Of a stretch of DNA of 64,000 bases, positions 1,635 through 26,871 are shown piece by piece (position 1 is the stretch's first letter; each line of letters opens with the position of its first letter). The stretch is taken from NCBI GenBank assembly GCA_016906335.1, contig JADEYG010000003.1, positions 1 through 64,000 on the forward strand, written 5' to 3'. The notes beneath the pieces were generated by a model. That model was not told where the DNA came from and made no database searches. It saw nothing but the letters and a program-made list of their open reading frames with translations. The position numbers were made by a program, and so were the translations under genes. Source of the DNA: Novakomyces olei (Eukaryota).

Positions 1635-4220
1635 GGCTGCGTTGGTTCCAACCTCGACCTTTACGCATGCCCGACAAGCCTTGCAAGCAACTACCTTTAA
1701 ACCAAAGGCCTCCTCGATTCCCAAGTACTCCATGACTGAGTATATCTGTTCAAGTCTTTAATTACTACTAGAAACATGCTGTAATCTATTTTCGATATAA
1801 TGCGAATCTTATTATTAATAGTGTGAATTTCCTTTCCGTCGTCGCGATTTTTACCATATATTAACCTGGAATTATGCAGTAAAATCTACCCTCGAAAACC
1901 CTGTTTGACTATTTGTTATTCAATTCTTATTAGAATTACGCCGTAATTCGCGACGACGAGCAGCAAATTCACATGACCCCCCTCCCATACATTAATTAAT
2001 TTTCAAACTGGAATTACGCCGTAATTCTACGTAGAACACCCTAACAAAAAATATAGCTAATAAAAACTACGATACATATATTTCGAATTACGGCGTAATT
2101 CGCGCAGGAATATGTATAGAATTACATTACACATAAATGAAATTTCGCAATAGCTTCGTCTTGAATATATATTTTTTGAATATATTTATATTAGTCTCCA
2201 TGCTTAATAAATACTTATATTTATACCATATACATTCCTACATACATTATTCCCCCATACATTAATCCCCATACATCATTTTACCAAACATTATTCCTCC
2301 ATAACCCTAACCCCCATTACCATTCTCTATTTTATAAACTTCTTCCCCCAACATGCTATCATTCTCTTATAATAAATTACTAACCCTAACATTCATACAC
2401 TTAGAACTAAATAACCCTAATTCTTCTCACTTTAACCATAGCCCTACCTCCTAACTCCATCAACTTCCATCTGCTTCCCTCAACTCTTCCAAAATCTTTC
2501 TTTCTTCATCTCCCATCACTTTTCCACATCCCCTCACACCCCTTCAATCTATTATTATTCACATTTTCCGCCCTTTTAAAACTTTTACATCATCATTTTT
2601 ATTTGATCCTTTCTAAACTTTAACCAAATATTATAAAATACTAAATAATATTAAAACAATCTTCCTTTCAATAACTGTCCTTTATCAAACATTTTTTTGG
2701 CAACTTCTACATTACTCTATTCCCATTTTCTATTTCCCTTTACTTCCTATCTCAACTCCAACTCTCTCCCTCCCTTTCATATCCAACAATCTCAATATAA
2801 TTCTCTACTCCATTCGATCATAAATAACCCTAACCCTAAATAAATATCACCGTACATTATTCCCCCATACATTATTCCCCCATACACATTATTCTCCATA
2901 CATTAATCCCCCATACATTAATTCCCCATACATTATTCCCATACATTAATCCCCCATATATTATTATACCATACATTATTATACATACATTATTCCTCCA
3001 TACATTATTCCACCATATATTATTATACCATACATTATAATGCCATATATTATTATACCATATGATTCTACCATATATTATTATACATACATTACTTTAC
3101 AATAACTTTACAATACATTATTCTACCATATATTATTTACCATACATTATTATACATACTTTACTTTACAATACATTATTATACCATACATTATTATACA
3201 TACATTATTCACTTTACAATACATTATTTTACCATATATTATTATACCACACATTATTATACATACATTATTCCTCCATACATTATTCCTCCATACATTA
3301 TTATACATACATTACTTTACAATAACTTTACAATACATTATTCTACCATATATTATTATACCATACATTATTATACCATACATTATTATACATACATTAT
3401 TCCTATACATTAAATTACCATACATTATTATACTATACATTATTATACATACATTGCTTTACAATAAATTATTCTACTATACATTATTATAATGCCACAT
3501 AAAATGCATCCTGCGCCGTCATGAGCTTTTTATAAATCTTTAAACCCATATATCTCCATAATTACTAATCCAATCTTGTAAACAAGTATATATTTACACT
3601 CCTACTGCACCCCTCTATCCAACCATACACTTTTTGTAAAAACACTTGTTCATTCGACGTTTTGTCACCTCTACACATGGACTACACACTCTTAATTTTT
3701 CTTATTTTTCTGACGTTTTTCTTATTATACTTTATTACTATGGGGCTCTCTCTATAATATTTTTATTATATTATCAGATAGCTATAATATGTGTAGACCA
3801 TCTTGTATAATAATTATATTTTATAAATTCAGCAACCCTACCCTCGCCGCAATATGGTTTGCCAATGTTTTGGAATTAAGGCGGAAACTATTTTTGCTCT
3901 TACGTCGTTCTTACCCCCGTTTATGCCAATTTCCTTAGCATTCCCGCGCAATTTCCCATATTATAATTTGGAATTTAGTCGGAAAATTCTCCCTAAAAAA
4001 CCCTGCCTCCACGTTTCTCCTACCATTCTTATTAGAATTACGCCATAATTCGCGGGAATGCTAAGGAAATTGGCATGACCCCCCCCTCATACATTAATTA
4101 TTTTTCGAAATGGAATTATGGCGTAAAGGAAAAGCGAAAACCCTGACTAGAATTATACATAATAAGAATCGCATTACATAAAAATGGAATTTCGCCATAA
4201 TTCCGTCTTGAATATATCTA
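1635..4220. mobile_element. Subtelomeric element copy B (TLH 5' fragment plus the complete upstream region)
   Basis: 1635-2125 matches 9256-9746 and 2764-4220 matches copy A; same terminus at 4220. Confidence 0.8.
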
Positions 4221-5634
4221 GAACTAAATAACCCTAATTCTTCTCACTTTAACCATAGCCCTACCTCCTAACTCCATCAACTTCCATCTGCTTCCCTCAA
4301 CTCTTCCAAAATCTTTCTTTCTTCATCTCCCATCACTTTTCCACATCCCCTCACACCCCTTCAATCTATTATTATTCACATTTTCCGCCCTTTTAAAACT
4401 TTTACATCATCATTTTTATTTGATCCTTTCTAAACTTTAACCAAATATTATAAAATACTAAATAATATTTAAACAATCTTCCTTTCAATAACTGTCCTTT
4501 ATCAAACATTTTTTTGGCAACTTCTACATTACTCTATTCCCATTTTCTATTTCCCTTTACTTCCTATCTCAACTCCAACTCTCTCCCTCCCTTTCATATC
4601 CAACAATCTCAATATAATTCTCTACTCCATTCGATCATAAATAACCCTAACCCTAAATAAATTACACATTATTATACATACATTATTCCTCCATACATTA
4701 TTCCTCCATACATTATTATACATACATTACTTTACAATAACTTTACAATACATTATTCTACCATATATTATTATACCATACATTATTATACCATACATTA
4801 TTATACATACATTATTCCTATCATTAAATTACCATACATTATTATACTATACATTATTATACATACATTGCTTTACAATAAATTATTCTACTATACATTA
4901 TTATAATGCCACATAAAATGCATCCTGCGCCGTCATGAGCTTTTTATAAATCTTTAAACCCATATATCTCCATAATTACTAATCCAATCTTGTAAACAAA
5001 TATATATTTACACTCTTACTGCTCCCCTCTATCCAACCATACACTTTTTGTAAAAACACTTGTTCTTTCGACGTTTTGTCACCTCTACACATGGACTACA
5101 CACTCTTAATTTTTCTTATTTTTCTGACGTTTTTCTTATTATACTTCTATTACTATGTTGCCCTCTCTATAATATTTATATTATATTATCAGATAACTAT
5201 AATATGTGTAGCACATCTTGTATAATAAATATATTATATAAATACAACAACCCTACCCTCGCCGCAATATGGTTTGCCAATGTTTTGGAATTAAGGCGGA
5301 AACTATTTTTGCTCTTACGTCGATCTTACCCCCGTTTATGCCAATTTCCTTAGCATTCCCGCGCAATTTCCCATATTATAATTTGGAATTTAGTCGGAAA
5401 ATTCTCCCTAAAAAACCCTGCCTCCACGTTTCTCCTACCATTCTTATTAGAATTACGCCATAATTCGCGGGAATGCTAAGGAAATTGGCATGACCCCCCC
5501 TCATACATTAATTATTTTTCGAAATGGAATTATGGCGTAAAGGAAAAGCGAAAACCCTGACTAGAATTATACATAATAAGAATCGCATTACATAAAAATG
5601 GAATTTCGCCATAATTCCGTCTTGAATATATCTA
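4221..5634. mobile_element. Subtelomeric element copy C (truncated, internal deletion, slightly diverged)
   Basis: Starts at the equivalent of 2404, lacks part of the AT-rich array after about 4660, carries several SNPs at about 5000-5250, and has the same terminus at 5634. Confidence 0.8.
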
Positions 5635-7437
5635 GACTTCGGCCCATCTCGCCTGTCTTCTAGAGAGCTGTTTCGTCGTTGTAAATGTCTGTAAGTTGCG
5701 ATGGTCTGTGTAGACAATAATTGGTATAGCATGACCTTGCAAATACGTTCTCCAAACTTTGAAAGCCCAAACTATAGCTAACAACTCTTTATCATGTATG
5801 TCGTAGTTAGTCTCTGCTGGTGTAAGCTTTCGGCTTATAAATGCAACTGGTCGTCTGCCTTTTTCTGGCCCTTGCGTCAACACTGCTCCGAGTGCAAAAT
5901 CAGACGCATCCGTTTCGATAATACATTGTTGATCTGGGTCATAGTGTTGTAGCATCACATCGCTAACGAAACATTTTTTCAATTTAGCAAAGCTTTCCTG
6001 CTGCTCTGTCTCCCATATAAACTTTTCATTTTTCTTTAGCGTTCGTGTTATCGGCAACGCTATCTTCGCAAAATCTTTTATAAATCTCCTGTAGTAGTTG
6101 CAAAAACCAAGGAAGACTTGAACATCGTGCACAGATCTTGGTGGCTCCCATTGCAAAATAGGTTCCCTTTTATCTGCGCACATCGACACTCCATTCGTCG
6201 ATAAGTTGTAACCAAGAAATTCGACGCTTTCTTTGTGAAATGCGCATTTCTCGTCCTTAGCATAAAGATTATTCTCTCTCAATCTTCTTAATACTTCTTT
6301 CACATCGTTCACATGCGATTCCCTATCGCGTGAAAATACCAAAATGTCGTCCAGATAGATTAACACTTTGTAATCTAATAAATCTCGAAACACATCATTC
6401 ATCAAGTTTTGGAACGTGGCGGGTGCATTGGTAAGACCAAAAGGCATGACCAAATATTCGAAATGCCCGTACCTTGTTCGAAAGGCAGTCTTCCATTCAT
6501 CCCCTTCTTTTATCCTGATAAGATTGTATGCTCCTCTGAGATCGATTTTTGACATAATCTTAACTCCAGTAAGTTTGTCAATAAGGTCATCGATACGTGG
6601 GATTGGGTACTTGTTCTTGATAGTAATCGAATTCAATCCACGATAATCGACACACAATCGTAATTCTCCATTTTTCTTTGGTACAAATAGAACTGGCGCT
6701 CCTGCAGGCGACTTGGAACGACGTATAAATCCCTTAGCCAAGTTCTCTTCCAAATAATCCAATAAATACTTCTGTTCCTTTGGGTTGACACTGTAGACTG
6801 GCCCGAAAGGTACAACAGAATCCTTTGTTAGTTCGATCTCGTGATCGTAACTTCTGTGTGGAGGCAATGTTTCCACGTTCTTTTCTTCAAACACATCTTT
6901 AAAGTCAGTATACTCTGGTGGTATTGTATTTGTAACCATCTCTTCATCCGTGGTAATACTGCTCAACTGTATATTCGAAATTTCGTCTTTCACCGTAGGA
7001 GTACTTGCATTGCGAGGCTTTATAGTTCCATTAATCCAATCAATATCTGGATTGTGCTTCTGAAACCATGGTAACCCAAGGATGGCGTCGTTCTTGCCAA
7101 TATTGGTAACAAGGAATGATTCTTCAGATACAAAACCTTGTACATCGACATGTAGATCCTTCGTCTTTATGGGTACTCCACCTCGTGCAATATGCTTTCC
7201 ATTTGCAACTCTGACAAATATAGGTGTTTTCAGACGTTCGGTCTCGGCCTTAAGTGCCAAAACAGTTCTTGGATTAATAAAATTAGTGTCTGACCCACTG
7301 TCTAGTAGCACTTTAATTCTCTTGCCGTTTACAACACACGACAACTCAAACCTCCCATAAGGTTTATCGTCTGGTGGCTTTTTCTGTGCCATCACCCCTA
7401 GAGACACCACCGTCGGCTCTAGGCTTGGCCTTTTAAA
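5632..7437 (-). pseudogene. pol: Ty3/gypsy pol (protease-RT-RNase H), truncated before integrase
   Basis: LDSGS protease motif, YLDD RT motif, ETDASD/DKELLAIV/YTDHRNL RNase H motifs. The ORF stops at QARWAEV exactly at the terminus of copy C; no integrase or 3' LTR. Confidence 0.93.
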
Positions 7438-8330
7438 TTCTTCGAATCCTCTGCTCTCACATCTCTCGCAGGATATGGTGCAGGACAATACTTCGAAACA
7501 TGTCCTTCTTCATTGCAACGATAACATTTGACCTTAAAGCCAACATGCTTCGGTTTAGCGTTCCTGTTAGCACGGACGCTATCTTTCAAACTTGCTCTTG
7601 TCTCCAAAAAGTCAACTTCCATAGGTGTATAACCAGCCGAGCCCACTCCACGGTACTCCGGTATTCTCTTCACCGTTCTGGTTCTAGCCTTGCTTCGTTC
7701 AAACAAGCGAGTATCAATCTTAACGCATTCTTCAATGAGCTTCTCAAGCTCTTCTGGCGGATCGCGACGAGCCAATTCGTCTTTGATATCCTCTTTAAGT
7801 CCTTCGTAGAACTGCGCAACGAGCGCATCGTTGTTCCACGTAAGCCACGACTTAACACGCTCAAACTCTGTGGCATAATGCGACACGGATCCCTTCTGTC
7901 TCAATAAGCGGATCTGTCTTTCAGCCGTTCTGCGGACGTCCCTGTCCCCGAACATTTTCTCCAAGGTTTGGCAAAAATTGTTAAAATCGTCAAGTATGGC
8001 GCCATTGTCGCTACGGACATGTGGCTCAAACCATTTAAAAGCAACTCCCCTAAGGTAGGAGGCTGCAAACATAACACGCTGCCGATCCGTGCTGTATCGT
8101 TCCGGTTGTCCCGCGATGACCATCTGGACATGGGTCAGAAAATCCCCCGTTTGCGAACGATCGCCCGAAAAGTACGGCGGAGGAGCAAGCTTAGGCTCCT
8201 TGGTGCGCGTGTTGGACACGATTCCATTAGCGGCGCGAAGTCGCTCACTAAGGCTCTGGTTTTCCGTTTCGAGTCTCTCGAGGCGAGCCGTCGTTTGCTC
8301 AAGAAACGATTGTAGCTGCTGATAATCCAT
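7419..8330 (-). CDS. gag: Ty3/gypsy Gag
   Basis: Retrotransposon capsid motifs (LRQKGSVSHYATEF, FYEGLKEDIKD) and CX2CX4HX4C knuckle CYRCNEEGHVSKYC. Confidence 0.92.
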   Translation of the reverse strand: MDYQQLQSFLEQTTARLERLETENQSLSERLRAANGIVSNTRTKEPKLAPPPYFSGDRSQTGDFLTHVQMVIAGQPERYSTDRQRVMFAASYLRGVAFKWFEPHVRSDNGAILDDFNNFCQTLEKMFGDRDVRRTAERQIRLLRQKGSVSHYATEFERVKSWLTWNNDALVAQFYEGLKEDIKDELARRDPPEELEKLIEECVKIDTRLFERSKARTRTVKRIPEYRGVGSAGYTPMEVDFLETRASLKDSVRANRNAKPKHVGFKVKCYRCNEEGHVSKYCPAPYPARDVRAEDSKNLKGQA

Positions 8331-8372
8331 CGTAAAAAGCTCGAAGAAAACGTCACAGTCCCCGAATCGTGG

Positions 8373-8381
8373 ACGTGTAAT
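8373..8381 (-). promoter_or_regulatory. Self-priming PBS (ATTACACGT), complementary to ACGTGTAAT in the LTR (8510-8518)
   Basis: 9-nt complementarity, 2 nt from the LTR end; the partner lies about 30 nt downstream of the TATA box, as in Tf1-type elements. Confidence 0.75.
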
Positions 8382-8383
8382 AC

Positions 8384-8783
8384 TGTTATGGTTGTAGAAG
8401 GCGAAAGCCTAAAGGAGAACCCAATTGCCGGATTTCACGCCGGCTCTGGGACTATGAGAAAATTAAGAGATAGAACTGGGTTTAAAAGATTGGGTCTCCC
8501 CAAAGTTCGATTACACGTAGCGAGAAAAGTAGAAGCAGGACCTCTATTTATATCCTCGCTACGTAGAATATTCTAGAAACACTAACTACTTAAACGATTA
8601 AACAAACTAACAAGTAAAAGCAGTCAGAACAATAATAGTCAATAAATAATAAATAATAAGTAAATATTTAAATAAATATTCAATATTAAATAAAGACAAC
8701 AAACAAATAATAATATAGCGCTTCAATAGCGTCGGTGCTATCGAAGACGCAATAACAATATAGAAATAAATTAAATCGTAACA
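8384..8783 (-). mobile_element. 5' LTR (400 bp) of the Ty3/gypsy element
   Basis: TGTTA...TAACA inverted ends and a TATAAATA box (8545-8552); lies just upstream of gag and interrupts the DUF3505 ORF. Confidence 0.85.
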
Positions 8784-11725: not shown

Positions 11726-12391
11726 CGTTCAATTGAATGTTTGTCGGAAATGCTAAGCGCTCAAAATCGTTGCCAAGCCAGCGTTTATATATTCGTTTAT
11801 ATTATATGTATTACTTTAACAGGAAAGATTACGCGAGCAAGACGGGAGGGATAGATTGATTGCCCAGTACGTAATTACAATGTATTATATAATACTAAAC
11901 ATTTATTATCAAAGAGGCTTTCTTATATTTACTATTAAAGAGATATTTTCATTATATATATTACACAATTATATAGGATGTCACATAGAATCAGGTCTAA
12001 GGGATAACTGCCGAAATAAAAGCACTGGAAGCTTCTTGTATATCGCAACAGCCTACGCGCAGCGTATCATGTATCGGTCCAGGAAAAAGCATTGCGGTAT
12101 TGTCGTGAATAGTAAAAGCAAGAAACCCGGTAGGTTGGGCCTTTTATAGGCGGTTTGCTCCTTTCGAGCTAGGGTTAGTCAGGGTTAGTCAGGGTTATAT
12201 TAAAAGATGAACCTTATGTAGGTTATTAAGATAGATATTGGCCAAGACAAAAGCAGTAATTCATTATACAATATGTATTGCATCTATCTATGTTTATATA
12301 TATATATATATGTATGTATATGTCCCACGCAAGACTGCCAGGGCTAATCGAGCGTCTGACCCAAAGTATTTCCTGACTCGATGTTTTCTGG

Positions 12392-14133
12392 CTAAGCTGC
12401 TTGCTGATCAAATGTACGTCTCGAGATACCGAGCCAACATTCGTCCGGCTTTTTCGAAAACCCTTCGTGCGACTCCAGAGTTTTCTGGTACAGCTCGAAT
12501 TTGTATCGGTGAAAGGCTGTTGCAATAATGAGCGACAGCTCCATGCGAGCGACATTTTGACCTACACAAGCGCGCGGTCCAAAGCTAAAGGGGTTGAAGC
12601 AAATCTTTTGTCTAGAGGTCAAGGCTCCCGGAAGCCATCGATCGGGCTTGAACTCCTCTACATCGGCACCCCACACATTTGCATCATGATGAATTGTGTA
12701 GCTGGGGACGGACAACACTGTTCCCGTCTTGAACTCCCATTCACCGTACGTAATACCCTTTGGAGCGGTCACTGTTCGCGGAAGGCCGAGCGCCGATGTG
12801 GAGTGCAGCCTCATGCCCTCGTCAATACAGCACCGGAGAAAGGGCAGATTCTTGACTTGCTCAAAGGAAGCAATTTCCGCCTCGGGCGGGATCGCGCTGT
12901 CGAGTTCCGCATACAGTCGAGGCAGGATTGTGCCCGGTGCGGCTCGTTCTCCGTGAAGAATCCAGTAAAAAATAGCGCATGAAGTGTTGGAGACCGTATC
13001 GCTTCCAGCAATAAGCTGCGTCAGCGCCTCAGACACGAGCTCATCGTACGGCATTGGTTGGCCTTTGCCGTCTCGTGCATCCAACAGCATTTGCAAGATA
13101 TCGTTTCGAGCGGCGACTTCGCTTCCAGTGGCGAGTCTGCGTGCTGCTGCTACACTCGCTATTCCGTGCAATGCGCCCACAGACTGAAGGCCCTTGGTGA
13201 AAAAAGGATCAGGCAAATATTTCGCGATTGGCCGAAGTGCCGGAAGCCAGCCCAGAGTAGAGCTGACTTCGCCTCGCCGATTCAAGGTTTCCGCGCCTGG
13301 CGAAAAAGTGACAGGCCCGTCTGGGCTCGTGCGGGACTCACACTCGTCCTTGGCCTTATCAACCATACCAAACGGTGCACCAAAAGCCAAATCGCCAATC
13401 ACGTCGAACGCGAGAAAAGTGCACCAGGGCATCATATTCATTTTCGCTGGGCTGGTGGATGTTGAGCGAGCGGCAATTTTGTCAAGCTGCCGCACCCAGC
13501 GGTGCAGGTTTTCCGCCATATGGTCCTCAAACGCATGGACTGAGCCGGGCGAAAACGCATGCGCAATAATTTTGCGCTTTCGCGTGTGCTCCGCACGGTT
13601 TCGAACATTAAATACCCCAGGAACTCCCGACACAAAGGCTTCGTAGTACGTGCTGTTTGCATTAGTGAATTGCCCAATAAAAAACCAAGACAGAGATGAG
13701 AGATTGAAATAAATAGTATCAAAAAGACCATTTTCATATGTGTTTGCTTTTCAAAACTATTCTCTCTCTCCTTTATATATATAATTTGGTTCAATTGGTT
13801 TTTCAAGCGTCAAGTCTAATAGTTTACATACTCTTTCAAAAAGCCATTGCCGTGCGCGTAAACGGCTTGGAGACCTTCTGGTTCAGCAATTGAAACATGG
13901 TTGTACCCAATGCGCACGATTGGACCGTAAACCCCGTGAGCCCAATGAACCCAAGCAAACTTTTTGCCGAGTCTGGCCGCAAGCGCAATCCAGATGTTGC
14001 TGATTTTCGCCAGTGGTGGTCCCGGTACGCGCTGCAAGTCCGAGTATGTTGTAAAGTAGGGCACAAGGTAATATTGCAGTGTCCAAAGCAGGCCAATTGC
14101 GGCAGCAAATCTCCAGTCGTTTATGAGAGCCAT
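12392..14133 (-). CDS. Cytochrome P450, CYP53 (benzoate 4-hydroxylase)-like, 1 intron
   Basis: FNVRNRAEHTRKRKIIAHAFS, AGSDT I-helix, EGMR (ExxR), FSFGPRACVG heme motif; intron about 13652-13830. Confidence 0.88.
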
Positions 14134-15686
14134 TGGGTCTGCTGGCGTAAACAAATTCGAATACTCTGGGCCACATTATATCCTTCTCGTAGGTCCCCCC
14201 ACTTTTGGTGCTCTCCATTATTGGCTGCCGAGACCCGTCGCCTGGTCGATACAAAAATGGGGTAGCTTTATTATTACGACTTTTGCGAGGTTTTCTTTAT
14301 CAGTGGTCGGATTGTTTTGGTAATTTTATTTGTTCCGCAAAAGCTTTGGAGAGCCACTTTATCACATTTGCGGAGATAAGAGATTTCATAGAAAACACGT
14401 TTAGCGCTAAAAGCGATAAGCGTTTGTGGATATATTATATATATATATATATATATAGATAGATAGACAAGGTACTAATAATTTGAATAAAACAAGTAGA
14501 TTTGTCTGCCAGTTCACATCAATTTAATGTAATTAAAGTCTTTCTATTCTGATGCCATTTACCTGGTTTGGAAATTTAAGAGATCAAGTGAGATCTCGCT
14601 CGGTGCATTTAACTTTTCGAATGCAAAGAGCAATTTATATAGACAATTTTAGTCATACGCGGTTTCGTCTCGTTCGACTGATCCTATTGAGGCCGCTCAT
14701 TAGTAATGCCTATTGAACGCTGAGCACGTAGCCAGCGATGTAATATAGTCTTTATCCTGGCCAAAGCTTCTAGCATAGGCTGAGAGATTCATGATTTTAC
14801 ATCCAAGGAAGCGTATAGCATATTAGTAGGATCTTGGTACGGTATATACATGGCCATGTGGGGTTATTCCGCAGGAGGGTACAAATTCTATTTTAAACCA
14901 TCGAGCTGTCTGCGCTATTTCAACATTATGTGCCAGTGCAGCGTTCTTTGTAGAAGACCTAAATTAACACCGATCTTTGTAAATGTCGTTGAGATACGCT
15001 CTCGTGCAACTGCAAGTGTATTTGGCGGAAGTTTCTATTGCAAAGACATCTTTGCGAATCCTAAACGCACTTTTGCTTGACTGGAATTGGTATTTTTCTA
15101 CCTGGGCTTTGTTTGGATGCAAAAGTGTTTGCGCGTTTGAAAGACCGTCTATGGCGATAAAACATGACTCTTTTTGTCCTGTTTTGTTTCCTGCAACTAA
15201 TTAATAGTAATCATTTGGTGCTGAAATCGTTATTTTTCATTTCTGGCGTCGATGATAATTGCCTTTTTTAACGTAGCTATTGGTCATACTTGCTTTGTTG
15301 TCATAAATATTTAGAGACGTAAAATCCCAGTTTGAAGCTCAGTCCCAAAAACCGCGCCATAACACACTGCTGGAAATGACACTGTAACGATAATGGATCT
15401 AGTTTTTCACAGACGGGCACTTGCTCGAACCATTACGTTAACGCAATATTTTCCATTTTCCTCCCGCTTACAGTCTATTAGTTTGTTGACCGTTTGGAAG
15501 AGTATTTCAGATAATGAAAACGCTAAATATAAAATTAGATACATGTATTGAACGCTAAATGGCTTTAACTGTCTTCTATTCAGCCTGATGGGCTACCTGC
15601 ACAGGCTGTCCAGTACCGCAAGGCTCCTAGAAAATTACGATGACTGGGCCCGAAAGATCAAGGCCTGTCTGGGGCGCCTTGTAATG

Positions 15687-17024
15687 TTAGCAGTGCGAGA
15701 GCTGGGCAAGAGGCAGCTCTGGCACGCGATCCAGCTTTTGGTTCGCGAGCGCCAGATCAGCATCACTAACGGCATCGTACTTGAATATCCAGTCACTCAT
15801 GACCGGACACTTCCAGAGGAACGGGCAGCCCGGGTCCGGTACGTCTTTCGCAATAGCCGTGTCGCGTGCCTCCTGTTCCGGACCATCGTCCAGGTGCCAG
15901 TAGTACTGGTGGTGGCAGCCAGCGTCGACTATTTTGCCCGTCCGTGCAATGCGCGTCTCCTCGTACGCACAAATGCTGATGGGCAGCTGCTCCTCTTTAT
16001 TCTCGGCCGTGACTGCCGCCAGCACACGGCCCATAACAGCAGCATCTTCAATACACATGCCGGCTCCCTGTGACAGGTAGGGCAGTGTTGCATGGACTGC
16101 ATCCCCGAGAAAACAAAACGTCTTTTTGGCGCTTGACCACGACGGAGTCTGATCGCGTACAGCCAGACGCCAGGTCACCATATCCGCACAGTCTTCAACA
16201 CGGGCCAAAAGGTCGCCTATAAAAGGATCAAAGTCTTTAAAGTACTCACGCAGCTCCGCTGTTGAGGAGCTGCCGTACTTGATCTCTTGCGGACCAAGAT
16301 TGTCGGGCACGAGCAGCACCATATTCAGGTACTCGCCGCCCCGAAGCGGGTAGCATACGAGATGCGTCTGCGGGCCGACCCAGTAATTGACGCGTGGTGT
16401 GTCCAGCAAATCGCGAAATTTACCGTCCGAAGCGGAGGCCAAGGCCTTGCCCGGGACAAGGATGCGGAAGGCGAGATCGCCAGAAAGCCGTGGCAGATCG
16501 ATTTTTTTGTAGAACAAATTGCGCAGGCCTGAATTGACCCCGTCAGCCGCGATAATTAGGTCTGCCATGACCTCTGATCCGTCCCGGCACGTCAGCCTTG
16601 TCGCTTCGAAGTCTACGTCAATCACAGCCTTTTCCAGCAACAGTTCCGCTCCATTAGCCACGGCCGCCTGTAGCAGTACGTGATGTAGATTGGCCCGATG
16701 AAAATTCCAAAAGGGCGACCCGTACTTGTGGCGATAAGCCGTCATGTCCACTGACCCAATAATACGGCCGTCCGCGTAACGCCGAAAGTTTGCCTCCTTT
16801 GGCTCGGCAGCAAAGGCGGCTAGTGCGTCCGCTAAGCCCCAGTGAGTTAGTATACGTGTGGCATTTGCGTTGATTTGTATGCCTGCACCAACTTCCTTGA
16901 TGCTGCTGGCCGCTTCCAGAATCACTACTTGATGTTCTGGCTGCTCACGTTTGATCGCTATTGCAGCCGACAGGCCTCCAATGCCGGCACCTACAATAAC
17001 TACCTTGAACCGTGGCCTATCCAT
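15687..17024 (-). CDS. FAD-dependent monooxygenase (salicylate/6-hydroxynicotinate hydroxylase family), intronless HxnX paralogue
   Basis: GAGIGG, ADGVNS and GDAVHATLPYLSQGA motifs; shares several distinctive motifs with the gene at 23407. Confidence 0.88.
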   Translation of the reverse strand: MDRPRFKVVIVGAGIGGLSAAIAIKREQPEHQVVILEAASSIKEVGAGIQINANATRILTHWGLADALAAFAAEPKEANFRRYADGRIIGSVDMTAYRHKYGSPFWNFHRANLHHVLLQAAVANGAELLLEKAVIDVDFEATRLTCRDGSEVMADLIIAADGVNSGLRNLFYKKIDLPRLSGDLAFRILVPGKALASASDGKFRDLLDTPRVNYWVGPQTHLVCYPLRGGEYLNMVLLVPDNLGPQEIKYGSSSTAELREYFKDFDPFIGDLLARVEDCADMVTWRLAVRDQTPSWSSAKKTFCFLGDAVHATLPYLSQGAGMCIEDAAVMGRVLAAVTAENKEEQLPISICAYEETRIARTGKIVDAGCHHQYYWHLDDGPEQEARDTAIAKDVPDPGCPFLWKCPVMSDWIFKYDAVSDADLALANQKLDRVPELPLAQLSHC

Positions 17025-17872
17025 CGTCTGTCTAAACCCCAAAAGTCGCTGGTCGTTTCTTTATCTGGCACCGCAGGCACCATTGTCGCACACGTCCGAT
17101 ACTCGTCGAACGGACGGCTAACATTATAAGTTATTTTATTATAGATAGATAAGGGTTAGGGTCAGGATAAGAGATAACAATTCGGCCAAAGGGCCCTTTA
17201 GAACTGCGATATCATGTAGGTCTTTCGCGCTGGCAACTACGTTCCATTGCTTTTTCCATGGCTAAGACCAGCTAAGAAGAAATTGCCTATTTATTTTTGT
17301 TGAGGCGAAACAATTACGGTTGCTTTCAAAACTATCCAGAGATCCAGCAAAGTTAAGAAACAAATAATGGGGCACTGGACCTGTTAGGATTGTTCGAAGC
17401 GCATAGATAGTACTGTTAGGGTTAATTAGGGTTAGGAACATTAAACTTGATAACAGTTTTTGGCCTATTTATTGTCAAACCTATACAATACCCAATATAT
17501 TGAATCTACTGCTGGAAGAAGGCCTGGATAGCCAAGAACTTTGGTTTTTGGCAGGTAGACATTAAATTGCGCCTCAAGAATAATATGAATAGCAATAATA
17601 TGAATAGCAAAAATCGTCTTGTTTCATTAAACACGCCCCCATTAATGTGTAAGTCTATCCGACAAAGCGCACGTGGTAATATAACCTATAATACCGAGAA
17701 CTTTGGTTTGCTCAGCGCGGGTATAGCAAATCATGTGGAAGTTGGACTCGACGATCGTCATGCTCAAATCCGCCTGCCGCCCTTGTTGGCTATATCTTGA
17801 TCGTTGAGTTTTGATTGCACTGTACAGCACTATCCCATCAGTAGTCCGTCTGCACTATAAGCTGGCTGGGAG

Positions 17873-19879
17873 CTAGTCACCCGCTCCAAAATCAAGCCGC
17901 TCAACCCTCGTCTGGGCCACCACACGTCCGCCAAAGATGGTGAGCCGTGCGGCCGGGGGTCGGGCACACAAGCCGGCGAGCACAGCCCACTTTGGGTCAC
18001 GGGCTTCGAGGGCGGAGCGGTCCGACTGCAGTAGTACAAATGACGCCTCGGCGCCTGGCTGCGGTATGAGAGGCACTGCTTGTTTCTTGATCGATGCTGA
18101 CGCGTACTCTGTAACGCAGCGCAGCAGCACATCCAGTGCATCTGCCGTGGCACTTTGCTGAACTGCAATTGAGAGCGGCAGCAGCTCGAGCGGGTCAGCC
18201 GTGCCCTGTGGTGTAAACGCATTTGCCACATTGTTTGTCGACAACGCAACACTGAAGCCGCACTGCTGGAGCAGTAGTACGGGCATTGTGCCCCGCGGAC
18301 GTAGAATCCCGCTCTCACGTCCCATCATATATACATCGCTCGCCGGCAGCCCCACAAAGTGCACATTCACAGGACTGGTACTGGTACTAGTACTAGTAGT
18401 ACTGGTAGTGCTAGTAGCGCTAGTAGTGCCAGTAGTGCTAGTAGTGCTAGTAGTGCCAGTAGTACCACGACTAGTAGTAGCTGGGCTATTAGTGGCTAGG
18501 CTATTAGTGGCTAGGCTATTAGTGGCTGGGCTATTAGTGGCTGGGCTAGCACCAGCAGAGCCAATAGGAACAGAACTAATAGAGCCAGTGGGGTTAGTAC
18601 TAGCAGTAGCAGTGGCAGTCCTGGGACTAGTAATAGCATTAGCAGAACTATCAAGACTACCGTGACTGACGATGTCACTGACATTGCACCGGCGGGCTAA
18701 AAATTGCAATTGATCTTTGTTATACAGACACAGCTTTGTCATATGTCCGAGTACAATCTTGCGCAGAGTACCGTCGCGATGCCGAGGCAAACGGCTCTCA
18801 CCTGCCCGTTGTAGCACATAGGGCAGCAGTGACGGGCGGCTCGGGTCCAGATCGTAGTCCAGGTGGAACTGCACGTCCAGATCAAACTGCTCTGCCAACT
18901 GAAACACGGTATCGATGTTGCGCTCCGGACACGTGTCGACGTACGGGGCAGAGCCGATGGCACACACGGCCGGCTCATCCGCATAGCGAGAACACGCTTG
19001 CTGGAGCAGCTCCGTCATTGCCGTACCCGAGACTGCTCCACCTGTTGCGTCTTCGTGCTGGAAAATCGCGTCCTGTGCAAACACGGCCAGACGCAAATCG
19101 ATGCGGTCCTTGAAGCGTCGGCTCAAAGCGACACACTCGTCTAGACACAGGAAGCCTACCGTTTTGTCGACCTCTACGTGTGACATCATGAGGGATACAC
19201 CGTACCCAATGGCCTCCTGCAACAACCGTTGGGCCCGTGCTTGCACATCTGCCGCAGTGAAAGCCGCCTTTTGTCGAGCCGTTTCCCTTAGCGCTTCCCC
19301 AAAGTCACTGTCGCCTTTGTTAGCCTCATCGCAGGATTAATCATTAATTCATTCCCAGACAAACATTGTAATAAACAAAATTTTAGACTGAAAATATTCG
19401 TAAATCATTAAATGAAGTTTATAAATCTTAACAGTTAAGAAAATCAATAAGCAAGAATCAAAATTGATCCAAATACTCAATTCTAGCAACTGCGCGAAAC
19501 TAAATTAAATGATCCAAAATCAAGTAAACAATTATTGCTCAGATGCGGATATTTTATTTGAAAAATGCAAATTAAAAAGGGCGAAGCTGAAAACAAGCGT
19601 ATCAATCTTTACTCACCCCGTGCGTAAAACTGCGTCGCTCAGCAAATGACACTTGTCAATGTGCATGTGGGCCTGTGTTAATCCTGGCAATACAATGGCA
19701 GCCCTGGCATCGACCACGCTGCCCGAGATCTCAGCATTTGGTCCCCAAATCGCAGTCGCCTGTGTACCCTCCGTCTGCTTCTCCACAGCTTTAACAGCAC
19801 CATGCTCTAAATGTATCGTGTACAGCGAGCTCGCATCATGCAGCAGCACGCAATTGCGCACTATCCGTATGTGTTCCAT
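17873..19879 (-). CDS. Metal-dependent amidohydrolase (cytosine/creatinine deaminase-like), 1 intron, Ser/Thr-rich insert
   Basis: PGLTQAHMHIDKC (HxH), FHLD, GH, NNVANAFTPQG motifs; intron about 19309-19616. Confidence 0.8.
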
Positions 19880-21152
19880 CCCATCAACATGTATTCACTA
19901 CCAGGGCTCTAGCTGTGACAAATGTTGCCGAGTCATCTTTACTTTGCTGCCACTTTAAAGATGCAATTATACGGCTATCACCGTTATGACAATTTGTTAT
20001 CGGAGGCATGTTTATTTTTTTTGGTACGGTAATTAATTATTTATCGGATAAATGGCTGAACATTTGTGTTCGCAACTAGTATTCAGGGTTATGTAGGGTT
20101 AATTACGATATTTCATCGATTACACTCATATCTGTGTTCTTGTTTTCTAATAGTTCGTTATGCGTTTGTGTAGTATATATTAACGTCGGTTCAGGCATAG
20201 GCAACAAGCTCAGTAGTAATTACGACCTCATCCTTTATTCAAAGCATTTATCTACGCGATATAGTCACCTACTGAAAACATGACAGCATGCAGATGTTGA
20301 GGCAATTTTTGTATAAAAATCAGTGCAAATACTATTTAAAAGTAATTAAACGCAACAAAACAAAGACTGTCAATGGCAGAAAATTAGTTTGTCTCATCTA
20401 TTATGGAAACTTTTTATTGGGAAAACGGGACGTGGGCGGTTTATCCCACTCTAAAAATGACAGTTTTGGCCAAAAGTTCAGAAAAGTTTGAAAGCTGTCT
20501 ACAATTTGAATCTAGCTCACAGTACGCCCAAGTTGTACACGTCATACGTTGAACACGTCATACGTTGGGGATCAAACTCAGTTGAATGGAGGAATGATGA
20601 ACTCAACTCGAATGTAATGTACATTTATTCTAAAACTGGCACAATCCGTCAAAATTCTTTTCAATTTTTGGACGCTTGGTCCGGAACGTTATTAAACGAA
20701 TATCCATCTAAAACATACGGTTTAAAAGCAATAATGAGCTGACAATAAAGTCGGCGTGTCAGTACTGCAGTCGCTGCGCTTTAGACATATTTACTGAAAA
20801 AAATTGATATTCAGGTTCTTACACATCTATCCCCCAAATGGTCCATAACGTAGATGTTCCGATAACCCCCACCTTTGATTTATTCCCCTTTTGGATTTGA
20901 CAACTAGGAATACTGTATGTATTGCTGCAAATGAGCATTCGTTACCCACTCTTGACGCGGATGAAATCCGTATCTTTTGCGATAGGGCAGTACACCACGA
21001 AAATCGGCCCTGAGTGCGGTGGGTTGCTTATCTAGCAGCATCTGCACAAAAGACAGTGCATATGGTTCAAAAGGCCGGCAAAGGTAGGAGTTTGTTTAAC
21101 TTTCACAAAAGTGGGCTCAAACAAAAGTGTGAACTTTGTACAAAGGACCACA

Positions 21153-22906
21153 ATGTCAGTTGGGATTGAAAAGAACAAAAGCGAATATGGCAAGGCTGAC
21201 GAAGAAGTCGGTCATGTCAGTGAGCTTATTGATTTGCCTTTGGGAACAGTTCATATTTTGGACTTGACCCATAACTATCACGGGAAGCATGCCAGCTCGG
21301 GCGACACAGAAATTATTTTGGAACCGCCTCCAAGTTCAGATCCCGAGGATCCTTTGAACTGGTCACGCAAGCGAAAATACCTGGCTACTCTATGCGCCAT
21401 TTTGTAAGAAGTAGATTGTTACTGGCGCTGACTCAAAAAAAGTTATACGTGGTGCGTTTGCGTATCGTCATCAGCCGTATACTCTGTGTTTGCACCAATT
21501 TACCTTGATACAGGAATAAGCTTTGGACAGCTAAATGTAATGCCAACAAAGCTGTATATTTGTTTGCACCCAACTTACTATAATAGGATGGCACAGGCTA
21601 CATGTTTCTCTTCTTTGGATGGAGTCTACTGTTTTGGCAACCAATTTCGCTCAAGTACGGAAGGCGAAGCGTTTATCTCATTCAGCTGCTGGGCACAATG
21701 GTAAGGGAGCAAATATTTTAAAAAAGCTTCAAATTTGCTGACGTAACACATAGGGATTTAATGTCTGGGCAGGATACGGCAGAAACAATGGTCAATGGAT
21801 TGCACAGAGAATATTGCTGGGGTTTTTCGGTGCGTCCAGCGAGGCATTGGTGGAGGTTACGGTCGCTGATCTGTGGTTCACCCACGAACGTGGAACTTAC
21901 ATGGCCATGTACGTTGTGAGTTTGTTTGGTGGTCAGCTCGGTACAATTCCGGCTGGCTTTATTACTGCCGCACAGGGCTGGCCATGGGTTTTTTACTGGT
22001 GCGCCATTCTGAATGCAATTGGGTTCGTGTTTTGCTTTTTCTTCATGGAAGAAACCATGTATGTGCGCGACTACACAAAACCTGACAAGATTACGCCGAG
22101 AAAGACTTTTCTACAAAAGCTTTCGCTATTTCCCAAGGAGCGTCCCAATATCAGCTTACTGGCGCTTACCATACAACCGTTCAAAATTTTGCAGCTACCG
22201 CTGGTGATATGGGCTGGAGTCTTATACGGATGCTATCTCTGCTGGTTTGCGCTTATGAACGCAACTGTGAGTGAGGTTTTGAGTGATGCACCTTACAACT
22301 TTTCTGGAGAGGTAAAGCCAGCTTTTCATTTTCTCGATTTTATTGTTCTAACCCCTCTAGATGGTTGGCGTGGCATACATTGGACAAATTATAGGACTCT
22401 ATATATCTGGAATTTTTGGCGGCAAGCTCGGTGACTATGTTGTTTTATGGGCAGCTCGAAGAAACAAGGGCATTGCAGAACCAGAATTTCGCTTGTACCT
22501 CTTTATCCCGGCCGCTATTCTTGCCCCTGCAGGCTTGATATTGTGGGGCGTGGGTGCTGCACACAAAGTACACTGGGTCGGTCTTCTCTTTGGGCTTGGT
22601 ATTACCGGTGTGACAATTCCTATGGCAGGTACAGTATGTGTGACGTACATTGTTGATTGCTATAAGGAAATCGCAGGGCCTTGCCTTGTCACGCTGGTTT
22701 TGTTCCGAAACACTATCGATTTTGGCTTCAACTACTCAGTCACTCCTTTTGTTGAGCACAGTGGTCTTCAAAACGTTTTTGTCATGTGGTCCATGATTGC
22801 GTTTGGAACAACTCTTTCGTGCTTGTTGATCATAAAGTATGGACGCCGCCTCCGAACTGCGGCTGCTCCAGTTTACGAGAAGCTGCGAAAAGAACAAATG
22901 CACTAG
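21153..22906 (+). CDS. MFS transporter (DHA1/Hol1-like), multi-exon
   Basis: PSSDPEDPLNWS, KYGRR, DLWFTHERG, EPEFRL and YIVDCY motifs; GT-AG introns. Confidence 0.85.
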
Positions 22907-23406
22907 GCAACGAGAGTAGAAAGAGCGAGCTTTGGCAAGATGGAAGTGTCAAAAATTGTTTGTTATAGAATTAGTGTAGTAAAAGGAATTTTTTAGATTT
23001 CAGACATGTACGAGGTACAGCGGAATATTAAAAATAAATCTTAATAATTTGGATACGGGTTTCAATGTCTCGAAATCTCTCGTGTTAAAATGTTGCAATA
23101 GTAAGGTGAGAGAAAGCAAGTTTAGACCTTAAAGTCCTCCAAACGTATGGCACCAAAGGCCGAGAAAAAAGTTACGCAAAAGCAATCTCGTACTTTACAT
23201 GGTCCCCCACCCCCCCACTTTGGACACCTTGAGTGGGCGGATATTGGCGCCCGCTTACGCATACCTATACCAGATCATCACCCCCACTTTTGACGTTCTA
23301 ATTAGTCTAAATGTACCAAAAGTGTGTAGGGCAATTATTATTGCCGCTTGATTCTTGGTCAATCTGCCAGCACTCACCATCACAGACAAGGACGAAGTTT
23401 TGAACG

Positions 23407-24944
23407 ATGGCACCTCGAATCTCTGTTAAAGACCAGGAGACTCGAACAGAGTCGTGCAGGCTTGACATTATTGTTATTGGAGCTGGCCTCGCTGGCCTTG
23501 GAGCAGCAATAAGCTCTGCACTTGCTGGGCATAGGGTACAAGTCCTCGAATGCACTTCCGATATTAGAGAGGTCGGTGCTGGTATTCAGGTCCTCCCAAA
23601 TAGCTCGCGCGTGCTGCAGCATTGGGGACTTGAAGAAGCGCTTACTCCTCACATGACGTTCCCGCGCGTATGCAATTTTGTTGGCTGGAAGGGCAACTTG
23701 ATCTCCTCGCTGGACTTTGCCGAGTCAGAAAAGGCGTATCCGGGAACTTGGTATCGTGACTTCCATAGAGCAGATCTTCAAAAATGCCTCTTAGATCGTG
23801 CTCTTGAATTGGGGGTTAAAGTGACTTGCAGTGTACGCGTTGCAGATGTGGTGAGCGATAACGATCTCAAAGCCACGGCTATTGCTACCGACGGCCGAAA
23901 GTGGGTCGCTGATCTTGTCGTTGGAGCGGACGGAGTCTTTGGCAAGTTGACAGAGAAGCTACTGGGCCGAAGCAATCCGCCAACGAAAACCGGCGATTTG
24001 GCATACCGCTTACTGCTGTCGACCGAGGAAATGCGAAAGGATCCAGAGCTGGAGCCTTTTCTCTCAGATCCACAGGTCAATTATTGGTTAGGCCCCGATG
24101 CTCATGCTGGTGAGTTTAAGCATTCGCTGCCAGCTTCGTCCCGACTAACATTTCATTTTTTGTGCTTTAGTAAATTATGTTTTGCGTGGAGGAAAGCTGT
24201 TCAACATGGTTTTGCTTGTTCCCGACGATATCCCAGAGGAGTCACTTGCCTCCACGATAGAGGGTAACGTGAAAGAGATGTGCGCTTTATTTGATGGCTG
24301 GGATCCGCGCATTCAAAAGCTTTTGAAACTCTGCCAGTCTGTTCAAAAGTGGCGTTTGTGTATACGGTTTGGAGATTTCAATTGGGTGCACCCCTCGGGA
24401 GCCTGGGTCATGATCGGAGACTCGGTGCATGCTACATTACCGTATCTGGCCTCTGGGTACGCAAATTTTGCTTTAATATTGAATATCAACTAATCTGGAC
24501 AGAGCTGGTATGGCGTTTGAGGATGGAGCGGTCCTCGGTGAATGTTTATCACGACTACCTAATGATCCCAATGTATCTAAACTATCCCCCGAATTTATCA
24601 GTGCAAAGAAGCATGCACTGGCAGTTTTCCAGGAATGCCGCAAACAGCGTACGCGAATGATAGTTCAGCGGGGTAATACCCAACAGTATCTGTATCATTT
24701 GCACGATGGACCAGAACAGCAAGAGAGAGACCGTAAAATGCAAATGGTACCGACCCCGGAGGGAGAAGCATTAGCCTGGCGCGACCCTGGTCTTGCCCCG
24801 AAGCTGTTAGGATATGACCATATCGCGGACGTAAGTTGAACATGCATTTATGATTCCATTCAAACTAAGCTAACTATCAAGGTCGATCGTAACTGGAACG
24901 GCAATGCTGGCGTCGAGTCCACAATAGACTGCCCTCGATTGTAA
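23407..24944 (+). CDS. hxnX: FAD monooxygenase, putative 6-hydroxynicotinate monooxygenase; C-terminal PRL (PTS1-like)
   Basis: GAGLAG, ADG and GDSVHATLPYLA motifs; 3 introns; last exon VDRNW...CPRL*. Symbol assigned from cluster context. Confidence 0.75.
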
Positions 24945-25410
24945 GCCGCAAAGATAACGCTTTTAAAAGCCCCAAGAGCAAGCTTGATTTGATTAATTGT
25001 TTGGGATATTTCATACTGTTAATAAGCATTTGGCTAAACTGCAATTGAAAACCTGCTCCTCCATTGGGGAGCAAGAAAGTATGCTCTCGAGCTTGTTGTT
25101 ACCACATATTAGTCTGACTGTAGTGCAATGTCTCAGCCGTCGTACTGTTCTCTTCCAAGACAGTTGTTCTTCATATACCCCCGTCTCTGTCATGGTAAAT
25201 TTGCATTATTTACCGCTCACCGAACGCTTATGACACTGCACGCCCAAAAGCTATGCTTCGTAGCCAATGTGCTGCTATTGGACCCGTAAAAGAGCCGTGA
25301 CCGACAGTAGTAACCCTCCAAATATTTACTTTTACAGCTGCGGCTATACACTAAGGCTATAAACTTTAAGGGATCATCTATTGTAAACGAATATCATCTC
25401 TTGAATTAAA

Positions 25411-26521
25411 CTAGAAGCGTCGAGCAACGCTGCCTGGCGGTGCTGGCATGGCGGCACCAGCAGGAGGTTTGTTTTTCTTTTTAAACTCGTCACACATTTG
25501 CTCAAAAGTAACCCACTCAACTCCCTCGTGTTTGTTGATATACTCAATGATCCTACAATACGGCAAGTTAACACAATTCTAAATACAAAAGTATGGATTC
25601 CCTGCCACTACCATACGTACCTTTCATGCATAAGAATGACGTGTGGTCGCCCAGACACATCTGGATGAATGGTCATGGGGAAAATGAACTCGTCAAATTC
25701 GCGATAAAAGTAATCGAAATGATCCTATCGCAAGTTAGTCCCGAATAAACCTTTGTCTGCAGTAACGCCAACCTTCCAAATATCTTCAATGTCGCGAGGA
25801 TTGACCCATCCATGACTGTTGGGCGCACCCTTGATAAACATCATTGGCGGCAGATCGTCAATGTACCAGCTGCCAGGGATCTCTACAAGCCCAGTATCGT
25901 GGCCCCTTACCAAAGGCTTCATCCAAGTCTGTGCCTTTTGCGTATAGTCGATCTTTGTCCAGGTATCGCCCGTCCTGAGCCAGTACATTTGACAGTCTTC
26001 ATGAGACATGGAATGATCATACTCGATCCCATACTCGAGCAGCATGTCCGCCATTTCAGCGCTCGTCTCCCACCATGGCGCTACTATGCCCCGCGGAGGC
26101 TTCCCACAAAAATCCTTGAGCATATGATACGTCTTGTCCATTATATCGAGCAACTGCTCTTTCGAGAGACTCGAAGGATTCTCGTGCGAGTAACCGTGCA
26201 GACCAATTTCGTGACCGGCATCGCGGACCATTGCGCATTCTTGGGGAAACGTTTCCAGGGAATGTCCGGGGATAAACCAGGAGGCTTTGATATTGTATTT
26301 TTCAAAGAGTTTGAGTACACGCGGCGTTCCCACATGTCCTGCCCAGAGACCTTTAAAAATAAAACAAAAACATCAGTTTAGTATAGAACGACACACGTTT
26401 AACGGTTTGCGATACCTCGACTTATATCGCTCACGCTGTCTTCGCCGCCGTAAGACCCAAGCCAACCAGAGACGGCATCAATGTCAACACCATAGCCCAC
26501 GAGTACCCGCTTTTTGCCCAT
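25411..26521 (-). CDS. hxnM: CE4/polysaccharide-deacetylase-family cyclic imide hydrolase (HpPgdA/PuuE-like)
   Basis: [26 protein letters not shown] and [11 protein letters not shown] motifs; 3 introns. Symbol from cluster context. Confidence 0.8.
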
Positions 26522-26871
26522 TTCACAACTAATTGATACAAATTTAAACCAGTGCTTTACTAAACAATATCGGTTTTTAAAGGCTTTTCAGGCAGTTGAT
26601 AGAGACCTTTTTACCGCTTCTTATGAAGCGGATGCGGGCGAGCAAATATTAGAACCGATAATTTCCCCTATCGGCTGTCAGCCCAATAGTGGGGGTTATC
26701 GTACCTGTCACCGAAGAATGCTGGATGGATTGCTTGAAATCTATTATTATGTTACTTGACAAAAGCTCACAGCGAATGTTATCTGACCAAACAAAATCAT
26801 GTTTTAAAATGGAAGCTACACGCAAATATTAAAAGCGATAATTAAAGGCAGAGTCAGAGCACAACTTGTAT

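Follow-up and report, generated by a model that had tools for sequence, protein, structure and literature searches.

A CYP53A-like P450 gene beside a subtelomeric hxn cluster without hxnS in Novakomyces olei

Introduction

What is a cytochrome P450 (P450) gene doing at the edge of a nicotinate-catabolic (hxn) gene cluster from which hxnS, the gene for the first enzyme, is missing? The question is raised by a stretch of 64,000 nucleotides (nt) of Novakomyces olei (assembly GCA_016906335.1, contig JADEYG010000003.1, positions 1 to 64,000 of the forward strand), hereafter the window, in which a two-exon P450 gene on the minus strand lies 12–14 kb from the chromosome end. The initial annotation had proposed that this P450 opens the pathway by hydroxylating C6 of nicotinate, which is para to its carboxyl group, in place of the molybdenum enzyme HxnS. 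Our analysis leads to a different and tentative answer, to which we give a little less than an even chance: the gene would encode a benzoate-type para-hydroxylase expressed together with the hxn genes. On the telomere side, the P450 is the last gene of a subtelomeric block holding an hxn cluster devoid of hxnS and hxnN, and its core promoter carries a 12-bp element (CAAAAGTGGGGG on the gene strand) that recurs in or adjacent to all hxn genes of the block and is absent from the rest of the window. This shared element argues that one zinc-finger factor, for which the HxnR of the cluster is the best candidate, most likely controls the transcription of both the P450 and the hxn genes, while the chemistry of the P450 is most likely unchanged, i.e., para-hydroxylation of benzoate-type acids. 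We infer the co-regulation, the identity of the binding factor and the substrate from the sequence.

Family Assignment and Conserved Positions of the P450

The P450 gene had been located correctly from the outset (ATG at 14133, stop at 12392, minus strand, 520 amino acids). It appears intact, because the signatures of the P450 fold (FxxGxRxCxG, ExxR and I-helix motifs) are all there: the heme loop FSFGPRACVG (residues 456–465), EGMR (379–382) and AGSDTV in the I-helix (316–321). Its sole Pfam match is p450 (PF00067; E 4.4e-58). Using exon 2 as a query, 1810 relatives were found at E <= 0.001 among 8000 candidates scored, the best 120 of which are 63–76% identical to the P450; these identities are to automatically named proteins, the characterised CYP53A1 and CYP53A15 being absent from the 120 rows. 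For 45 of these 120 relatives, the source name, likewise automatic, is benzoate 4-monooxygenase or benzoate para-hydroxylase. In a library of representatives clustered at 50% identity, only one full-length cluster (P0122, 64%) lies near the P450, the other full-length ones reaching at most 51%. By the rule of P450 nomenclature, more than 40% identity to a curated member defines a CYP family and more than 55% a subfamily. Taken together, the level of identity, the names of the relatives and the lone near cluster identify the P450 as CYP53A-like by sequence, which agrees with the CYP53-like family first assigned to it. As for the sampling, the 120 best rows include a single Aspergillus (A. saccharolyticus), no Fusarium and no Pleosporales, and the copy of the PDB that we searched returned no CYP53 structure (top match P450 BM3, E 8e-21). 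A 65%-identical homologue from metagenome locus L004 has an intron of about 55 nt that interrupts the same codon in the same phase (AAAGA followed by GTATGT) as the single intron of the P450. The gene and its core promoter are bracketed by two inverted low-complexity arms of 32 nt, 2.1 kb apart and 91% complementary, which consist of (TA)n followed by TAGA repeats and may be either microsatellites that arose by chance or remnants of an insertion.

CYP53A enzymes hydroxylate benzoate para to the carboxyl group. To judge whether the active site might have changed, column conservation was computed from an alignment of the P450 with all 120 relatives. The P450 differs at none of the 77 invariant columns, and at two (G201A and V270A) of the 182 columns conserved at 95% or more (control median 1, all 120 relatives). 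At lower thresholds, for which those 69 of the 120 rows that are full-length serve as controls, it differs at five of the 210 columns conserved at 90% or more (control median 3; five or more differences in 21 of 69) and at eight of the 242 columns conserved at 80% or more (control median 8; eight or more in 38 of 69). The protein is thus ordinary at conserved positions, and its sequence bears no sign of an altered active site. Its terminal branch is nonetheless long (0.54–0.58 vs. a median of 0.18) and, because the conserved columns are unchanged, this length stems from variable positions.

These results bear on two other readings of the gene. That of the initial annotation, a P450 opening the pathway by hydroxylating nicotinate, is in our view distinctly improbable. 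Its premises stood up, since the protein is CYP53-like, hxnS is missing in the window and the element shared with the hxn genes is non-random (see below), but the conserved positions show no signs of a change of substrate, and there is no substitution pattern hinting at a new one. Moreover, if the P450 takes nicotinate, its benzoate-annotated relatives should as well. Two chemical considerations also count against it: electrophilic P450 oxidation is unfavourable at the electron-poor carbon beside the ring nitrogen (C6), and the pyridine nitrogen can ligate the heme iron. In addition, the pyridine alpha-hydroxylations of nicotine and nicotinate pathways that are listed in the discussion of PMC6346535 all use molybdenum hydroxylases, hxnS-less clusters have been read as using 6-hydroxynicotinate only (Bokor 2021), and our literature searches, judged by title, yielded no paper linking CYP53 to nicotinate. 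According to the other reading, which we regard as unlikely on balance, the P450 is simply the benzoate 4-monooxygenase of the organism, devoted to benzoate detoxification, and the element in its promoter is a general carbon-repression site of the Mig1/CreA type. The protein itself is indistinguishable from its relatives annotated as benzoate 4-monooxygenases, and most ascomycetes have a single CYP53 (Jawallapersand 2014), so the window copy may be the sole one; all 19 aspergilli likewise have a single copy (de Vries 2017).

An Element Common to the P450 and hxn Promoters

On the gene strand, the core promoter of the P450 reads CCAAT ... CAAAAGTGGGGGG ... TATAAT ... ATG, where CAAAAGTGGGGGG contains GTGGGG and lies 64 nt upstream of the ATG. 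The three promoter strings on which the co-regulation proposal had been built, GGTCCCCCCACTTTTGG for the P450 and GGTCCCCCACCCCCCCACTTTGG and CCCCCACTTTT for the hxnX-like gene, are found exactly at the positions reported for them (Table 1), and the sharing of the element between the two promoters is non-random. When up to two mismatches are allowed, CCCCCACTTTKG has 22 matches in the window against 7.4 ± 2.9 expected (0 of 100 shuffles), while exact copies of CCCCCACT number 8 against 0.87 (0 of 100 shuffles) and those of CACTTTTG 11 against 3.07 (1 of 100 shuffles). All eight copies of CCCCCACT are located within or next to hxn-type genes, in the interval from 14.2 to 34.7 kb, and the P450 promoter has a perfect copy. 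Two shorter, weaker forms of the motif are not significantly enriched: CCCCCCAC occurs 3 times (0.82 expected), a count reached by 8 of 100 shuffles, and CCCCACTTT, with at most one mismatch, 17 times (13.2 expected; 14 of 100 shuffles). A regular expression describing the element matches 13 sites against 1.35 expected (the largest count in 300 shuffles being 6), all 13 inside 14.1–36.5 kb and none in the other 41,628 nt of the window.

This regular expression was written post hoc; therefore, all 8-mers were counted, without any prior motif, over eight non-coding segments of the block. The top 8-mers were CCCCCACT, whose 8 copies are spread over 5 of these segments with none in the rest of the window, ACTTTTGG and ATAACCCC, and repeat finding recovered the same element family independently (D6, D10, D15). 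Copies of the element occur in eight non-coding segments of the block, beyond the upstream region of hxnX alone, where they stand at −195 (GGTCCCCCACCCCCCCACTTTGG), −126 (CCCCCACTTTT) and −84 from the ATG. A duplicated promoter was considered and rejected: the upstream regions of the P450 and the hxnX-like gene are alike at the element only and, as their flanks are not alignable past it, what they have in common is a short shared site. Of the 13 sites, 3 have an AreA-type GATA site directly adjoining the element (GATAACCCCCAC), and a fourth has ATAAC without the G. Both copies of the hxnR-like gene are within intron 1, the position of which interrupts the second zinc finger, and one of them abuts the TACTAAT branch site.

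Which Factor Would Bind the Element

A zinc-finger specificity predictor gave 5'-GHGGGG (relaxed GNGGDG) as the site of HxnR (Bokor 2021, Fig. 4 legend), whose sites were not determined experimentally in that study. The core of CCCCCACT is the reverse complement of GTGGGG, which fits this prediction, and the P450 promoter hence contains a predicted HxnR site. The Mig1/CreA consensus, in which SYGGGG comes after an AT run, is likewise compatible with CAAAAGTGGGGG, since its GTGGGG follows an AT run; such a site would mean general carbon repression, as expected if the P450 is a detoxifying enzyme unconnected with the cluster. HxnR and Mig1/CreA are inseparable by sequence, but we favour HxnR because the element is restricted to the block and the cluster itself encodes a C2H2 factor. 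Against a general repression site also speak the absence of the element from the 41.6 kb outside the block, despite the catabolic-looking genes found there (AnmK, SIS-domain), its length, which exceeds the 6-bp core, and the abutting GATA sites. The latter would suit the joint control by HxnR and AreA known from A. nidulans (Bokor 2021).

Several points, besides the post hoc origin of the regular expression and the fit to Mig1/CreA, weigh against an expression of the P450 together with the hxn genes. The motif is the whole of the case for co-regulation, and the HxnR site to which it is compared is a computer prediction from another species. Moreover, the picture of one element per promoter is not clean, the 5' region of hxnY holding a half-site only and both copies of hxnR being intronic, while 2 of the 11 matches of CACTTTTG fall in coding sequence. 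In addition, the P450 is separated by two genes from the first gene recognised as hxn. Finally, of five metagenome loci with a CYP53A homologue, two had a usable flank, on one side each, and neither of these flanks (0 of 2) showed hxn neighbours: that of L004 (10 kb) carries a DUF7702 gene and a mitochondrial carrier, and that of L002 (2.6 kb) an RTA1-like gene. These two flanks would be expected of an ordinary benzoate 4-monooxygenase. On the other side, the P450 is physically linked to the hxn genes, its ATG being 7.0 kb from that of the major facilitator superfamily (MFS) gene and 9.3 kb from that of the hxnX-like gene, and the two genes between the P450 and the MFS gene also adjoin copies of the element. 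Altogether, a co-regulation of the P450 with the hxn genes is plausible.

Gene Content of the Block

Of the 58 open reading frames (ORFs) of at least 130 amino acids in the window, 40 were scanned with Pfam, the remaining 18 being opposite-strand overlaps of identified genes except for one, which lies between hxnV and hxnW. The domain sets match those given for HxnX, V, W, M, T, Y, R and P/Z (Bokor 2021, Table 1), and 21153–37793 holds a seven-enzyme hxn-type cluster along with its own regulator (Table 1). Among the 40 ORFs scanned, there was no xanthine-dehydrogenase domain (Fer2, FAD_binding_5, Ald_Xan_dh) and no amidase domain. The cluster in this window is without hxnS, hxnN and a second transporter, and the missing hxnS of the initial annotation is borne out for the window.

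Table 1. Features of the window, with their position, strand and characteristics.
Feature	Position	Strand	Characteristics
Telomere	1-116	-	11.6 copies of the 10-nt unit TTAGGGTTAG
Subtelomeric tandem arrays	200-905, 2849-3491, 4666-4904		15-, 29- and 44-nt units
Ty3-type retroelement	5632-8408		gag, protease, reverse transcriptase, RNase H; long open frames
Interstitial telomere-like repeat	12171-12197	+	AGGGTTAGTC x 2.7; about 200 nt past the P450 stop; left edge of the block
Low-complexity arms	12283-12314 / 14436-14467		bracket the P450 gene and core promoter
P450 gene	12392-14133	-	two exons
P450 exon 2	12392-13652	-	1261 nt, ends with the stop; residues 101-520; holds AGSDTV, EGMR, FSFGPRACVG
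P450 intron (single)	13653-13831	-	179 nt, GTATGT...CAG, phase 2
P450 exon 1	13832-14133	-	302 nt; ATG at 14133; hydrophobic N-terminal stretch, PGPP hinge
TATAAT of the P450 promoter	14175-14180
GGTCCCCCCACTTTTGG	14192-14208	+	P450 promoter; element of the initial annotation
Core CCCCCACTTTTG	14196-14207	+	64 nt upstream of the P450 ATG
Degenerate second copy ACCCCATTTTTG	14252-14263	-	129 nt upstream of the P450 ATG; inverted relative to the first
ATAACCCCAC, 5' half of the composite element	14858-14867	-	734 nt upstream of the P450 ATG
Two half-sites CACTTTTG	15068-15075, 15120-15127	+, -	-935 and -994 from the P450 ATG
Second group-A flavin monooxygenase (FAD_binding_3)	15687-17024	-	weak element copy at 17637, -613
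Cytosine-deaminase-family amidohydrolase	17873-19879	-	at least 2 exons
Repeat-built insert of the amidohydrolase	18375-18660		9- and 15-nt repeats
MFS transporter (hxnP/Z-like)	21153-22906	+	element 20866-20877; half-sites 21106-21129
GGTCCCCCACCCCCCCACTTTGG	23201-23223		upstream of the hxnX-like gene
CCCCCACTTTT	23281-23291		upstream of the hxnX-like gene
hxnX-like flavin adenine dinucleotide (FAD) monooxygenase	23408-24839	+	3 exons, ATG at 23408; elements 23212-23223, 23281-23292
hxnM-like (Polysacc_deac_1)	25725-26372	-	element 26684-26695
hxnY-like 2-oxoglutarate-Fe(II) oxygenase	27219-28011	-	only half-site CACTTTTG, 28122-28129, in the 5' region
hxnR-like regulator	28979-31792	+	two C2H2 fingers in exon 1, then Fungal_trans; elements 29154-29165, 29303-29314 in intron 1
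hxnV-like phenol-hydroxylase-type monooxygenase (FAD_binding_3 + Phe_hydrox_dim)	32283-34121	-	elements 34659-34670, 34709-34720
hxnW-like short-chain dehydrogenase	34946-35485	-	Pfam
hxnT-like old-yellow-enzyme reductase	36507-37793	+	elements 35977-35988, 36304-36315 in the region shared with hxnW
SIS-domain ORF adjoining AnmK-family (anhydro-sugar kinase) gene	42721-45555		right of the cluster

The stretch from the telomere-like repeat to the MFS gene holds, besides the P450, a second flavin monooxygenase and an amidohydrolase. The former shares 37% identity with the hxnX-like protein across 196 amino acids, and its nearest NCBIfam model is 3-hydroxybenzoate 6-monooxygenase, with a score below the model cut-off. 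The latter might be a stand-in for the missing amidase HxnN; its Ser/Thr/Ala-rich insert is built of short repeats. If both missing enzymes had a substitute in the same arm of the block, this would be a point for the P450 as replacement of HxnS. These three extra enzymes could also be a funnel arm of the regulon, turning aromatic or pyridine acids other than nicotinate and benzoate into intermediates of the pathway, an idea that we regard as highly improbable. Copies of the element at the P450 (14196, 14252) and in the amidohydrolase/MFS region (20866), with a weak one at the flavin monooxygenase (17637), would agree with it, as would the membership of this flavin monooxygenase in the 3-hydroxybenzoate 6-hydroxylase/salicylate hydroxylase group. 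However, it is drawn from family names, no substrate being readable from the sequences, and the pocket of the P450 is conserved with its benzoate-type relatives, which again suits a benzoate-type para-hydroxylase.

As side observations, introns of the hxnV-like (33222–33430) and hxnR-like (29776–29900) genes are filled with long T-rich microsatellites made of TTTTTA and TTTTA units, and the introns of the window have lengths uncommon in fungi (from 179 to about 290 nt). A SIS-domain ORF on the right of the cluster adjoins a gene of the AnmK family, a pairing that in bacteria serves anhydro-muramic acid recycling.

A Compositionally Distinct Subtelomeric Block

The block including the P450 (about 12.2–37.8 kb) is subtelomeric and stands apart in its composition. 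Its genes, from the P450 to hxnT, have a GC content at third codon positions (GC3) of 0.46–0.66 (14 ORF pieces, mean 0.55), against 0.36–0.48 (9 pieces, mean 0.42) for the genes on the right-hand side (Mann–Whitney p 2e-4), several pieces belonging to one gene in this comparison. That the P450 has the GC3 of the block is a further argument against an unrelated neighbour. Towards the telomere, an OrsD-like ORF and an epimerase-family gene lie between the retroelement and the telomere-like repeat that marks the left edge of the block, the retroelement itself being located between the subtelomeric repeats and the block. The subtelomeric repeat region has a GC content of about 0.30 and a strong negative GC skew. 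Decamers of the telomeric unit TTAGGGTTAG, with at most one mismatch, number 36 in the window against 3.6 expected, including internal ones at 12171–12197, 17150–17165, 17416–17435 and 46940–46959, which could be scars of old chromosome ends or binding sites of telomere-repeat factors in promoters.

Phylogenetic Placement of the Host and of the P450

The host was placed using the N-terminal part of Nog2 (265 amino acids), which is 61–65% identical to 16 Pezizomycotina proteins from seven classes, these seven classes being 67–86% identical among themselves (median 74) over the same columns. A Nog2 search with yeast-sized proteins gave a top match at 78%, followed by Savitreella (64%), a member of Taphrinomycotina, Geotrichum (64%) and Nadsonia (63%). 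In the corresponding tree (32 rows, 279 columns, trimmed query, one gene), the window pairs with the 78% match (Shimodaira–Hasegawa-like approximate likelihood ratio test, SH-aLRT, 98), then with Savitreella (94), and falls outside both the Pezizomycotina clade (17 rows, 97) and the Saccharomycotina clade (9 rows, 88). Because this placement comes from one gene and 279 columns, it is only moderate evidence that the host groups with Taphrinomycotina, outside Pezizomycotina. A class II aldolase at 54 kb was set aside as a host marker, as it is not the glycolytic enzyme.

In contrast to its host, the P450 nests among Pezizomycotina sequences, nearest Mycosphaerellaceae, in a tree of 60 named rows of the best 120 and eight cluster representatives (unnamed and short rows excluded). 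Constraining the 29 Pezizomycotina rows to group together worsens the log-likelihood by 18.1 units (p-value of the approximately unbiased, AU, test 0.037), a result that is only suggestive because the tested group was named after inspection of the tree. Among ascomycetes, CYP53 was found in Pezizomycotina only, with none in Taphrinomycotina or Saccharomycotina (51 species; Jawallapersand 2014), no hxn cluster was reported from Taphrinomycotina, and HxnS was described as confined to Pezizomycotina (Bokor 2021, section 2.4). The block, P450 included, may therefore have come from a Pezizomycotina donor, as judged from sequence. When 30001–50000 was compared with the contigs of four runs, two of them covered 30 of 30 bins and two yielded short unlike pieces, which is uninformative on the block across strains.

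These data bring the nicotinate question back. The reported confinement of HxnS to Pezizomycotina, when set against a host near Savitreella, and the reported absence of CYP53 from Taphrinomycotina and Saccharomycotina both speak for a replacement of HxnS, while the nested position of the P450 and the GC3 of the block fit its acquisition with or alongside the cluster. The use of a group named after the tree had been seen speaks against it. We thus assign a low probability to the full scenario, in which a CYP53A from a Pezizomycotina donor, wired into the HxnR circuit of a Taphrinomycotina-like yeast, acts as a molybdenum-independent nicotinate 6-hydroxylase.

Comparison with Known Systems and Significance

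HxnS takes the oxygen that it transfers from water, and a P450 takes it from O2. The P450 and HxnS, the molybdenum-cofactor enzyme of xanthine-dehydrogenase type in A. nidulans, are alike only in the proposed C6 regiochemistry and in their place in the hxn regulon; their folds and cofactors are unrelated, and the P450 has none of the HxnS domains (Fer2, Fer2_2, FAD_binding_5, CO_deh_flav_C, Ald_Xan_dh_C2; Bokor 2021, Table 1). Consequently, the P450 is not an HxnS-type member and could be a functional analogue at most. With the CYP53A benzoate 4-monooxygenases (A. niger BphA/CYP53A1 and Cochliobolus lunatus CYP53A15; PMC4164535), it shares the P450 fold and signatures, all 77 columns invariant in the 120 relatives and a single-intron form, as in one described ascomycete type, and it differs from them by its non-Pezizomycotina host, its place at the edge of a subtelomeric hxn cluster and the promoter element of that cluster.

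The pathway, as outlined in Bokor 2022, runs through HxnS, X, V, T, W, M and N, with 5,6-dihydroxypiperidine-2-one as the inducer. Clusters devoid of hxnS are already known from Aspergillus section Flavi, most Penicillium, Talaromyces and 14 Saccharomycotina species (Bokor 2021). Like them, the cluster of the window has kept hxnR without hxnS, and it also lacks hxnN and a second transporter, as in Saccharomycotina. Additional genes in hxn clusters are known as well, those of the hxnS-less ones being nfsA, pfdB, a kinase and an amidase (Bokor 2021, section 2.5), with no P450 in the main text of that study. The amidase of the Kregervanrija fluxuum cluster (same section), thought to replace HxnN, is a precedent for a non-orthologous enzyme covering a missing step, but there the last step is concerned, within the same enzyme family, whereas a replacement of HxnS in the window would concern the first step and a different enzyme class. 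What is new here is a CYP53A gene at the edge of an hxn cluster with the element of that cluster, along with the 12-bp form of the element and the subtelomeric, non-Pezizomycotina setting.

Many fungi retain the hxn pathway and its regulator without HxnS, and the P450 of the window is a concrete candidate for the missing first step. If it did hydroxylate nicotinate at C6, it would be the first P450 known to alpha-hydroxylate a pyridine carboxylate as part of a catabolic pathway and thereby a new enzyme class for pyridine alpha-hydroxylation, for which molybdenum enzymes are those discussed so far in these pathways (discussion of PMC6346535); it would then explain the entry of nicotinate in fungi without HxnS, perhaps without molybdenum cofactor. 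Even if the P450 acts on benzoate only, the 12-bp element, as a candidate HxnR element, extends the 6-bp site predicted by Bokor 2021, and the window adds an hxn cluster to a lineage for which that survey had reported none.

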